From IMG/VR virus record IMGVR_UViG_2563366831_000005: DNA of 17,162 nucleotides; one strand, given 5' to 3'. The stretch comes from a virus. Taxonomy: Duplodnaviria; Heunggongvirae; Uroviricota; Caudoviricetes. The notes under the pieces are model-generated. The model did not search any database. It was not told the origin of the DNA and saw only the letters and a list, made by a program, of their open reading frames with translations. Both the position numbers and the translations under genes were made by a program. This document shows positions 947 to 5,292 of this stretch, one piece after another (positions within the stretch are counted from its first letter, which is position 1; every line of letters begins with the position of its first letter).

Positions 947-988
947 GAAATTAAAGCTAAGTTCGGACTGAAAGGAGCAAGTGTATGA
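947..988 (+). pseudogene. 3'-terminal remnant (13 codons) of the phage replication gene (P position in lambda), cut off by the IS
   Basis: The frame ending in TGA at 986-988 overlaps the ren ATG at 985-987 as ATGA, the P/ren junction architecture of lambda. The open frame (EIKAKFGLKGASV*) begins exactly at the IS terminus. Identity as P is inferred from position only. Confidence 0.4.
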
Positions 989-1275
989 AGGGCAAAGAGG
1001 CAATTATTCATTACCTGGGGACGCATAATAGCTTCTGTGCGCCGGACGTTGCCGCGCTAACAGGCGCAACAGTAACCAGCATAAATCAGGCCGCGGCTAA
1101 AATGGCACGGGCAGGTCTTCTGGTTATCGAAGGTAAGGTCTGGCGAACGGTGTATTACCGGTTTGCTACCAGGGAAGAACGGGAAGGAAAGATGAGCACG
1201 AACCTGATTTTTAAGGAGTGTCGCCAGAGTGCCGCGATGAAACGGGTATTGGCGGTATATGGAGTTAAAAGATGA
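985..1275 (+). CDS. ren: Ren (Rex-exclusion resistance protein), lambda-like
   Basis: 96 aa, MKGKEAIIHYLGTHNSFCAPDVAALTGATVTSINQAAAKMARAG...; matches lambda Ren in length and sequence as recalled. Sits directly upstream of the tR2-like terminator and ninB. Confidence 0.85.
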   Translation: MKGKEAIIHYLGTHNSFCAPDVAALTGATVTSINQAAAKMARAGLLVIEGKVWRTVYYRFATREEREGKMSTNLIFKECRQSAAMKRVLAVYGVKR

Positions 1276-1300
1276 CCATCTACATTACTGAGCTAATAAC

Positions 1301-1333
1301 AGGCCTGCTGGTAATCGCAGGCCTTTTTATTTG
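1301..1333 (+). terminator. Intrinsic terminator, tR2-like (between ren and ninB)
   Basis: AGGCCTGC (1301-1308), loop tggtaatc, GCAGGCCT (1317-1324), then TTTTTATTT. Same position as lambda tR2. Confidence 0.6.
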
Positions 1334-1348
1334 GGGGAGAGGGAAGTC

Positions 1349-1789
1349 ATGAAAAAACTAACCTTTGAAATTCGATCTCCAGCACATCAGCAAAACGCTA
1401 TTCACGCAGTACAGCAAATCCTTCCAGACCCAACCAAACCAATCGTAGTAACCATTCAGGAACGCAACCGCAGCTTAGACCAAAACAGGAAGCTATGGGC
1501 CTGCTTAGGTGACGTCTCTCGTCAGGTTGAATGGCATGGTCGCTGGCTGGATGCAGAAAGCTGGAAGTGTGTGTTTACCGCAGCATTAAAGCAGCAGGAT
1601 GTTGTTCCTAACCTTGCCGGGAATGGCTTTGTGGTAATAGGCCAGTCAACCAGCAGGATGCGTGTAGGCGAATTTGCGGAGCTATTAGAGCTTATACAGG
1701 CATTCGGTACAGAGCGTGGCGTTAAGTGGTCAGACGAAGCGAGACTGGCTCTGGAGTGGAAAGCGAGATGGGGAGATCGGGCTGCATGA
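1349..1789 (+). CDS. ninB: NinB (Orf-family recombination protein)
   Basis: 146 aa from ATG 1349 (MKKLTFEIRSPAHQQNAIHAVQQILPDPTKPIVVTIQERNRSLDQNRKLWACLGDVSRQVEWHGRWLD...), preceded by a GGGAGAGGGAAG ribosome-binding site. The track's start at 1331 is a TTG extension. Confidence 0.9.
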   Translation: MKKLTFEIRSPAHQQNAIHAVQQILPDPTKPIVVTIQERNRSLDQNRKLWACLGDVSRQVEWHGRWLDAESWKCVFTAALKQQDVVPNLAGNGFVVIGQSTSRMRVGEFAELLELIQAFGTERGVKWSDEARLALEWKARWGDRAA

Positions 1790-3621: not shown

Positions 3622-4005
3622 ATGCGTGATATTCAGATGGTTCTTGAGCGTTGGGGAGCGTGGGCGGCTAATAATCATGAAGATGTGACCTGGTCGTCCA
3701 TTGCCGCCGGTTTTAAGGGATTAATTCCTTCAAAAGTAAAATCTCGCCCACAATGTTGTGACGATGACGCGATGATCATTTGCGGGTGCATGGCCCGTCT
3801 GAAAAAGAACAACAGCGATTTGCATGATTTATTAGTAGATTATTATGTAGTCGGTATGACATTCATGTCACTGGCAGGTAAGCATTGCTGCTCTGATGGT
3901 TATATCGGGAAAAGGTTACAGAAGGCTGAGGGCATAATTGAAGGGATGTTAATGGCATTAGATATCCGGTTAGAGATGGATATCGTTGTTAATAACTCTA
4001 ATTAA
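3622..4005 (+). CDS. Q: Late-gene antiterminator Q (DLP12 QuuD / phage-21-like type)
   Basis: 127 aa from ATG 3622 ([60 protein letters not shown]...), GGAG ribosome-binding site at 3611-3614. Cysteine cluster consistent with a zinc-binding Q. Sits immediately upstream of the late region. Confidence 0.8.
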
Positions 4006-4145
4006 TATGCCAATTATTTACTAAAAGTTATTAAAAATGGGGCGTTGAGACGCCCCCAAAAATAAAGGGTAATATATAACAGAAGGTTTATATAGTTAGA
4101 AGCAAGGTTGTGCTTCTAAAGGAAGTGGCTTGAGGGAGCCACTTA
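4006..4145 (+). promoter_or_regulatory. Candidate late promoter / Q-utilisation region (PR'-qut position)
   Basis: Position immediately downstream of Q, as in lambdoid phages. AT-rich with TTGAGA and TAATAT/TATATA hexamers, but I could not assign a convincing -35/-10 pair with canonical spacing. Confidence 0.25.
4039..4056 (-). terminator. Intrinsic terminator on the minus strand (distal terminator for the porin transcript)
   Basis: GGGGCGT (4039-4045), loop tgag, ACGCCCC (4050-4056). On the minus strand it is followed by ATTTTTAATAACTTTT; on the plus strand the tail is A-rich, so it is minus-specific. Confidence 0.4.
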
Positions 4146-4185
4146 TATGTTGGGGAGGCAACGCCTCCCGCAACATATCTTTTTC
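4146..4185 (+). terminator. Strong intrinsic terminator on the plus strand (tR'-like, downstream of Q)
   Basis: 15-bp interrupted stem: ATATGTTG-GGGAGGC, loop AAC, GCCTCCC-(g)-CAACATAT (4146-4179), followed by CTTTTT (4180-4185). Abuts the porin stop codon at 4195-4197. Confidence 0.55.
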
Positions 4186-4194
4186 GTAATCAGA

Positions 4195-5292
4195 TTAGAA
4201 CTGGTAAACCAGACCTACAGCAACGATGTCATCAGTGCTTACACCGAGTGCTTTAGTGAAGTCATTTTTGTCAAGCAGGTTGATTTTGTAATCAACGAAA
4301 GTAGACATATTTTTGTTGAAGTAATAGGTTGCACCTACATCAACATATTTGACTAAGTCCTGATCGCCCCATACTCCAAGATCCTTACCTTTAGATTGCA
4401 GGTAAGCAACGGACGGACGCAGACCGAAATCGAACTGATATTGTGCAACAGCTTCGAAGTTTTGGGCTTTATTAGCAACGAAGTGATCAGCAAATACAGT
4501 CATATTCTGGGTTTCAGAATAGGTAGTGGCCAGGTAAATGTTGTTAGCGTCATATTTCAGACCTGCGGCCCAAACTTCTGCATTTTTACCGGAAGCAAAT
4601 ACTTCAGGAAGAACTTTCCCTGCATTAACTTGAGTGTCGGTACGATCAGATTTCGCATAAGTTGCACCGATACCGAATCCTTCGTATTCATAGGTAGCAG
4701 AGAAACCGAAGCCATCACCGTTACCTTCAGTGTAGTTATCGAAATCGCTACGATCGTTTTTGCCTTGGTACTGAGCAGCAAAGTTCAGACCATCAACCAG
4801 ACCAAAGAAGTCGTTGTTACGATAGGTTGCAACACCAGTGGTGCGACCAGTCATGAACACATCTGTTTGGGTCCAGGTATCGCCACCGAATTCTGGCAGA
4901 ACGTCAGTCCACGCACCGATGTCGTATGCTACACCGTAGTTACGGCCGTAATCGATTGAGCCGTAGTCACCGAATTTCAGGCCTGCAAATGCAAGACGGG
5001 TTTTGTCTTTGGAGGAACCTTGAGATTCAGCGCGGTTGCCTTTGAATTCATATTCCCACTGACCGAAACCAGTCAGTTGATCGTTGATTTGGGTTTCACC
5101 TTTGAAGCCAAGACGGGCATAAGTAGTATCACCATCATCTGCATCATTAGAGGAGAAGTAGTGCTTGGCATTAACTTTCCCGTACAGATCCAGCTTGTTA
5201 CTGTCTTTATTATAAATTTCAGCTGCCTGAGCAGACATCGCCATCAGTACTGATGCAGCTACAGCAGAAATTGCCACTGTTAATTTTTTCAT
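4195..5292 (-). CDS. nmpC: Phage-encoded OmpC-family outer-membrane porin (NmpC/Lc type), intact
   Basis: 365 aa with a signal peptide ([23 protein letters not shown]|AEIYNK) and typical porin sequence through the C-terminal ...VGLVYQF. Uninterrupted by any IS. Confidence 0.9.

Follow-up and report, generated by a model that had tools for sequence, protein, structure and literature searches.

The region between ren and ninB in this prophage raises the question of whether a 26-codon hydrophobic open reading frame (ORF), which is joined to both neighbours by ATGA overlaps and has a transcription terminator inside it, is a small gene in its own right, a means of governing the terminator, or an accident of the terminator stem. 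The window, to which positions refer unless another record is named, is the whole stretch of DNA that was analysed (17,162 nucleotides). The features on which the argument depends are the following:

985..1275, plus strand: ren, 96 codons, from the ORF list; annotated as Ren in the lambda-matching region
1261..1264, plus strand: GGAG, a Shine-Dalgarno-like motif read from the sequence, within the 3' end of ren and 7 nt before the ninA ATG
1272..1352, plus strand: ninA, 26 codons, from the ORF list; peptide MTIYITELITGLLVIAGLFIWGRGKS, PHROG 5907, predicted single-pass hydrophobic peptide
1301..1324, plus strand: tR2 hairpin AGGCCTGC-TGGTAATC-GCAGGCCT, from the terminator scan and the fold; spans ninA codons 10-18
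1325..1332, plus strand: tR2 T-tract TTTTATTT, which encodes the Phe-Ile of a Leu-Phe-Ile-Trp segment
1333..1346, plus strand: purine-rich ribosome-binding region of ninB GGGGGAGAGGGAAG, which also encodes the Gly-Arg-Gly-Lys tail of NinA
1349..1789, plus strand: ninB (orf, recombination mediator), from the ORF list and annotated records

The first-pass annotation had described the ORF, its two ATGA overlaps and a hairpin within the reading frame, and all of these elements were recovered. The ninA ATG (1272-1274) shares bases with the ren TGA (1273-1275), and the ninA TGA (1350-1352) shares bases with the ninB ATG (1349-1351), which gives the order ren-ATGA-ninA-ATGA-ninB. For ninB, the ORF list reaches back to a TTG at 1331, and the ATG at 1349 is the start used in all annotated records. 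A terminator scan of positions 800-2000 returned a single site, with its stem at 1301-1324 (8 pairs, 6 of them G-C), a loop of 8 nt and then TTTTATTTGG, and the MFE fold has the same hairpin as the sole strong element there. Since positions 1150-1450 are 99.7-100% identical to lambda 40445-40745, this G+C-rich hairpin and its T-tract are homologous to lambda tR2; the lambda coordinate is the window coordinate plus 39295, which places ninA at lambda 40,567-40,647. By a rough estimate, a 26-codon frame open from the upstream stop to the downstream start would arise by chance in less than about 1% of cases, and the ren-ninA-ninB arrangement is more than chance.

The ORF is ninA, a mini-gene of lambdoid phages that was named decades ago, has tR2 inside it, and is already known. 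Databases contain the identical 26 residues under the name 'NinA protein' (UniRef K7PHM1_9CAUD, several GenBank accessions, 78 contigs), and PHROG 5907, a family of unknown function, matches it over residues 1-26 with E=1.6e-19; a Pfam search with NinA gave no match. In the phage 21 record (AJ237660), ren, ninA and ninB are annotated with exactly the overlaps of the window. The P22 record annotates ninA and marks a terminator inside it ('L2; similar to phage lambda'), while gene 45 of Sf6 is annotated as 'similar to phage 21 NinA', also with an internal terminator ('homology to phage lambda; tR2'). A recent record of phage 434 gives the ORF ('similarity to lambda Orf26') together with its ribosome-binding site (RBS) and terminator, and ninA is also annotated in epsilon34 and mEp234. 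The ninB RBS is annotated at the equivalent of 1333..1346 in phage 434 and lambda imm21. In the phage L genome paper, ninA is one of the nin genes given for lambda and P22, and the ATGA stop/start overlaps are credited to Kroger & Hobom 1982; Hayes and co-workers write the region removed by the nin5 deletion as 'ren-ninA-ninI'.

The gene is widespread. By tblastn, NinA was found in 421 phage records, which include phages of Escherichia, Salmonella and Shigella and Stx-converting phages, and ninA DNA is present in 1983 of 5426 complete E. coli genomes (~37%), with up to 5 copies per genome. In phages 21, 434, P22 and Sf6, as in 236 unique contexts, ninA keeps its place: the replication genes or ren precede it, the first nin gene follows it, and its ends overlap these neighbours. 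Compared with NinA of the lambdoid phages (lambda/21 ninA, P22 ninA, Sf6 gp45, HK97 gp56/HK544 gp48; PHROG 5907), the window ORF has the same sequence, position, embedded tR2-type terminator and overlapping start and stop, and nothing substantive differs; in the window the prophage is defective upstream, where an IS3-family element replaces most of gene P. The same stop/start motif links the other nin genes, and ninA is the only link in that chain to carry a strong terminator.

The first-pass annotation knew of no annotated gene at this place, which was wrong, as the gene is in GenBank, UniRef and the PHROGs; the gene went unrecognised because it is left out of the lambda reference records (NC_001416, J02459) and of PGAP-annotated RefSeq genomes. 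Standard pipelines and reference records thereby silently skip a conserved and probably translated gene that about 37% of complete E. coli genomes possess. As a discovery the ORF carries little weight, the gene, its ATGA links, its internal terminator and the effect of its translation on tR2 being already in databases or the literature, but NinA is a tractable small-protein target in the best-studied phage. The peptide is a predicted one, identical in sequence to the deposited NinA, and it is non-essential.

In lambda, read-through of terminators is achieved by N/nut antitermination. A second route had been suggested for this locus in the first-pass annotation, namely that ribosomes on ninA occupy the tR2 stem and so produce translation-dependent read-through into the nin genes. 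Such a device would resemble the leader-peptide attenuators (trp, pyrBI), which like ninA have a short ORF upstream of or across an intrinsic terminator, so that the position of the ribosome could in principle matter, and the hairpin does lie wholly inside ninA.

The closest measurements are those of Li et al. 2015 (NAR 44:2554, PMC4824070), who placed ever longer pieces of the natural upstream sequence in front of lambda tR2. The hairpin, the T-tract and the 48 nt upstream, the NinA start among them, are the same as in the window, and in the reporter, as in the window, tR2 lies 30 bp past the NinA AUG and 16 bp short of the stop. Li et al. describe the NinA initiation site as 'not weak', and the start is active in vivo: expression of the upstream RFP fell to about half when the NinA start was present, which they attribute to stop-less mRNAs, and in the W48 reporter mutation of either the NinA RBS or its AUG restored RFP and altered the termination efficiency of tR2 by only ~10%. 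Their explanation is that over the first ~100 nt of an ORF a ribosome is unable to catch up with the polymerase. For NinA they also cite the ribosome profiling of Liu et al. 2013; a re-analysis published in DNA Research in 2017 does not mention ninA.

Li et al. also provide evidence for an influence of ribosomes on this terminator, as ribosomes close to tR2 can repress termination almost completely, and an upstream ORF extended through tR2 lowered its efficiency to ~40%; the maximal efficiency in the reporter was ~0.9 (PMC4824070). The construct was plasmid-borne, had the RFP stop 48 nt upstream, and lacked N/nut and the native ATGA junction with ren, from which a reinitiating ribosome might already be trailing the polymerase. 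Since that junction was missing and an ORF running through tR2 had so large an effect, translation of ninA may have a modest effect on tR2 in the native context, although this is hard to square with the literature, in which transcription that passes tR1 without N is stopped by tR2. The remaining evidence is also against read-through being set by ninA translation. The terminator lies ~30 nt from the start, too early for the ribosome to reach the polymerase, and the ren stop is ~26 nt before the hairpin, a stop-to-hairpin distance at which the W series already showed near-maximal termination; once a stop codon lies farther upstream than ~27 nt, tR2 loses the protection (PMC4824070). No alternative antiterminator pairing of the attenuator type is evident in the fold, and ninA has no regulatory codons. 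The Rfam Trp_leader family matches positions 1241-1330 at 19.7 bits (E=0.15), below its gathering score of 41, and this match probably reflects only the generic shape of a short ORF plus a terminator; the other Rfam matches were likewise below threshold and at chance level only. The termination-or-read-through decision by ribosome position that defines leader-peptide attenuators is therefore not what we see at ninA, in view of the ~10% effect, the sub-threshold Trp_leader score and the fold, and we regard an attenuator-like role of the ORF as very unlikely. Of the two readings offered by the first-pass annotation, translation-dependent read-through of tR2 reduces to a minor effect at most (~10% in the reporter), while there is support, short of proof, for a real small membrane peptide.

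Support for the peptide comes from comparison of the locus across phages. We analysed by script several hundred lambdoid loci from IMG/VR and GenBank; their diversity comes from DNA-anchor scans, some anchors of which lie inside ninA. Scans with NinB added little variety, as the one of viral contigs retained only NinB with 100% identity and the one of genome contigs gave mostly contaminating lambda DNA. The substitution test covered the 69 nt common to the lambda-type (type-A) copies and comprised only 30 distinct substitutions in 37 haplotypes from 123 contexts, the sequences being non-independent. In the ninA frame (frame 0), 15 substitutions are synonymous and 15 non-synonymous, where a synonymous fraction of 0.28 would be expected (binomial P=0.008); not one of the 30 introduces a stop codon. 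The corresponding ratios in frames 1 and 2 are 8:20 and 6:23 (P=0.51 and 0.77), with 3 and 2 stop-creating substitutions. This points to moderate, frame-specific purifying selection on ninA (roughly omega 0.4), and since the constraints imposed by the hairpin, the T-tract and the RBS are equal for all frames whereas the excess is frame-specific, the selection would act at the level of the amino acids. In the HK97-type copies the changes are few, with 4 synonymous and 5 mostly conservative ones over the first 66 nt, to which the comparison was confined because the tails past this point are mosaic and not homologous.

Where the upstream gene is not ren, homology to the window starts exactly at the ninA ATG. 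The 7 unrelated upstream 3' ends (ren, P, DnaB-like helicases and others) have their stop at +1 (ATGA), -2 (TGATGA) or -3 (TAAATG) relative to this ATG, and all 7 have GGAG, GAGG or AGGGG 6-12 nt before it. On the other side, in at least 10 downstream contexts, the start of the next gene lies between -23 and +10 from the ninA stop, and the last 2-7 residues of NinA vary with the downstream gene (GKS, VNRG, GKCG, VIGGFKK, GEK and others).

The encoded peptide is hydrophobic in two types of copy that have different hairpins. NinA of the window has a best 19-residue Kyte-Doolittle (KD) value of 2.04 (residues 2-20), which is like that of a transmembrane (TM) segment, with Glu7 inside the stretch and a basic RGK tail; by prediction, the stretch is long enough to span a membrane and is flanked by charged residues. 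The copies of the HK97 gp56/HK544 gp48 type are 32 aa long (MTIYITELITGAIYTVALFYWIKNEGDPDGHR) and their best window is 1.52. Their hairpin is in the same place and differs, having a 10-bp stem (AGGGGCTATT/AGTAGCCCTT), a 5-nt loop and T6ATT; the lengths balance overall, which keeps the frame, and GAIYTVALFYW is encoded. The octapeptides encoded by the hairpins have KD values of 2.64 (lambda type) and 1.71 (HK97 type), and in simulated random GC-rich hairpins an open frame with KD of at least 1.9 occurred in 0.5% of cases and one with KD of at least 1.0 in 4.9%.

These data bear on whether the terminator, together with a recombination 'boundary sequence' between modules, is what is conserved, the open frame being incidental. 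The Sf6 record labels exactly these 81 nt 'bsq6; boundary sequence', the junctions at both ends of ninA are mosaic, and conservation over the first 30 nt is high and extends to many synonymous sites. In addition, the hairpin survives where the ORF is split (see below), and PGAP and the lambda reference records do without the ORF. Non-coding conservation does not account for the frame-specific substitution pattern with no stop-creating change in the ninA frame, for a Shine-Dalgarno sequence in every upstream context, or for a start site that functions in vivo (Li et al., PMC4824070), and strongly hydrophobic coding is improbable for a random terminator hairpin. We consider a non-coding by-product highly improbable; the comparison of the lambdoid loci favours a translated small membrane peptide over a terminator accident and, taken together with the reporter data, suggests a translated NinA peptide that is probably inserted in the membrane.

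Some phages have a broken ninA or none. In HK022 and several Stx2 phages (loci L251, NC_049945.1 15800-18200; L252, HK022 AF069308 31900-34000; L116; and L234-L250), ninA is split by an HNH endonuclease gene of 204 codons, inserted after about codon 10 and just upstream of the tR2 hairpin, which stays intact. The N-terminus of the split ninA runs on into 23 new hydrophobic codons (MTIYITELIAGLSLLMVLTVYIIKYILYANKKTN) that overlap the HNH start, and the hairpin with the 3' part of ninA follows directly after the HNH stop, without a canonical start. We considered the resulting 34-aa ORF of the HK022 type as a terminator-less homologue of NinA and rejected this, as the ORF joins the N-terminal part of ninA to the left end of the HNH cassette. 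The HNH stop codon ends 1 nt before the tR2 hairpin, and by the distance rule of Li et al. tR2 should be strongly suppressed whenever the HNH gene is translated.

Frameshifted copies of ninA are rare: L191 has one T too many in the T-tract, and L073/L140 lack 1 nt close to the 3' end. In two loci (L015 and L102), ninB has no ninA or tR2 directly upstream, and L015 still keeps the purine-rich stretch of the ninB RBS. Moreover, the nin5 deletion (lambda 40,503-43,307), which is carried by viable phages, takes out ninA (Hayes and co-workers). Since ninA is split in HK022 and Stx2 phages and removed by nin5, it is dispensable in viable phages. The first-pass annotation held that spacers with an intact hairpin and a broken frame would expose the ORF as a by-product of the stem; this is borne out in part, by the split copies and the rare frameshifts, which show that the ORF is dispensable but do not show it to be a by-product.

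Dispensability also fits another role for the ORF, in which the only use of keeping the frame open and translating it is to bring ribosomes over the terminator spacer to ninB, and the peptide itself has no function. Translation would in this way be coupled, the tR2 hairpin would be melted in mRNA that has read through the terminator, and no untranslated gap would be left. Both ends of ninA overlap or abut the neighbours in many unrelated contexts, the C-terminal tail simply follows the RBS and start of the next gene, and all the nin genes are ATGA-chained, as would be expected of such a relay. Against it, the frame-specific excess of synonymous changes is a constraint at the amino-acid level, beyond mere openness of the frame; two different hairpins and the HNH cassette sequence all encode strongly hydrophobic segments after MTIYITEL, the conserved N-terminus of NinA; and ninB has a good RBS of its own and is found without ninA in some phages. 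We therefore judge it unlikely that carrying ribosomes is all that ninA does, while giving this more credit than either the attenuator-like role or the non-coding origin.

The reading we prefer, and consider likely, is that ninA is a known, widely conserved small lambdoid gene co-encoded with tR2, translated in the following way. On N-antiterminated pR transcripts, ribosomes ending the upstream gene would reinitiate at the AUGA, aided by the Shine-Dalgarno sequence, cross both the hairpin and the U-tract of tR2, and be released at the UGA that shares bases with the ninB AUG. In this way ninB would be coupled to ninA, and the series of translationally coupled nin genes would continue without a break past the terminator. 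The product would be a 26-residue single-pass membrane peptide that has a hydrophobic stretch (residues 2-21) with a single Glu in it and ends in a basic tail. Where the transcript is unmodified, the polymerase would terminate inside ninA about 90% of the time, and ribosomes that had started on ninA would then meet a stop-less 3' end and need rescue, which fits the halved upstream reporter of Li et al. (PMC4824070).

More tentatively, NinA could be a functional single-pass membrane peptide whose TM codons are dual-coded with an intrinsic terminator, selection keeping both layers, with the HNH insert supplying a surrogate hydrophobic C-terminus after MTIYITEL; we hold this possible without going so far as to call it probable. 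Selection on both layers is suggested because two different hairpins each encode hydrophobic helices in frame, and the surrogate C-terminus, if it is one, implies that the NinA peptide matters to the phage. Either way, ninA is a clean natural case in which the same nucleotides code for protein and form a strong intrinsic terminator, and what is left of interest is the role of NinA and the dual coding of TM segment and terminator.

In the window itself, homology to lambda starts at position 945, 40 nt before ren. Upstream (1-944) is an IS3-family transposase, with an orfA-like ORF at 566-892 on the minus strand, and gene P is almost wholly gone; the prophage is probably defective for replication, and ren-ninA in the window may no longer be driven from pR. 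In related E. coli genomes, an 'IS3 family transposase' is annotated beside the same nin genes.

Other observations concern the genes next to ninA. In many phages, a 68-codon ORF with a GTG start, and not ninB, follows directly after ninA (positions 1196-1402 of the HK022 locus L252 and equivalents). Its start overlaps the ninA stop by 8 nt and it has two hydrophobic stretches (VAELIFSALRLLGALWMVATFIVVAGCF...), which makes it a second small putative membrane protein beside NinA. Contigs of low coverage and at most about 48.5 kb (L084-L097, L101 and L103-L110) also carry lambda ninB with 100% identity, in assemblies labelled Pseudomonas, Oceanobacillus, Bradyrhizobium, Shewanella, Nocardioides, Paenibacillus, Veillonella and others; these contigs are almost certainly lambda control or ligation-standard DNA that has contaminated the assemblies. 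Finally, locus L257 (IMGVR_UViG_2657245532_000006, reverse strand, ~3830-4370) has a tandem 228-bp duplication that starts within the 3' half of the hairpin of tR2 (ATCGCAGGCCTTTTT) and takes in ~60 codons at the beginning of ninB, with the 5' arm of the hairpin and the 5' half of ninA missing, which could be a rearrangement or an assembly artefact.
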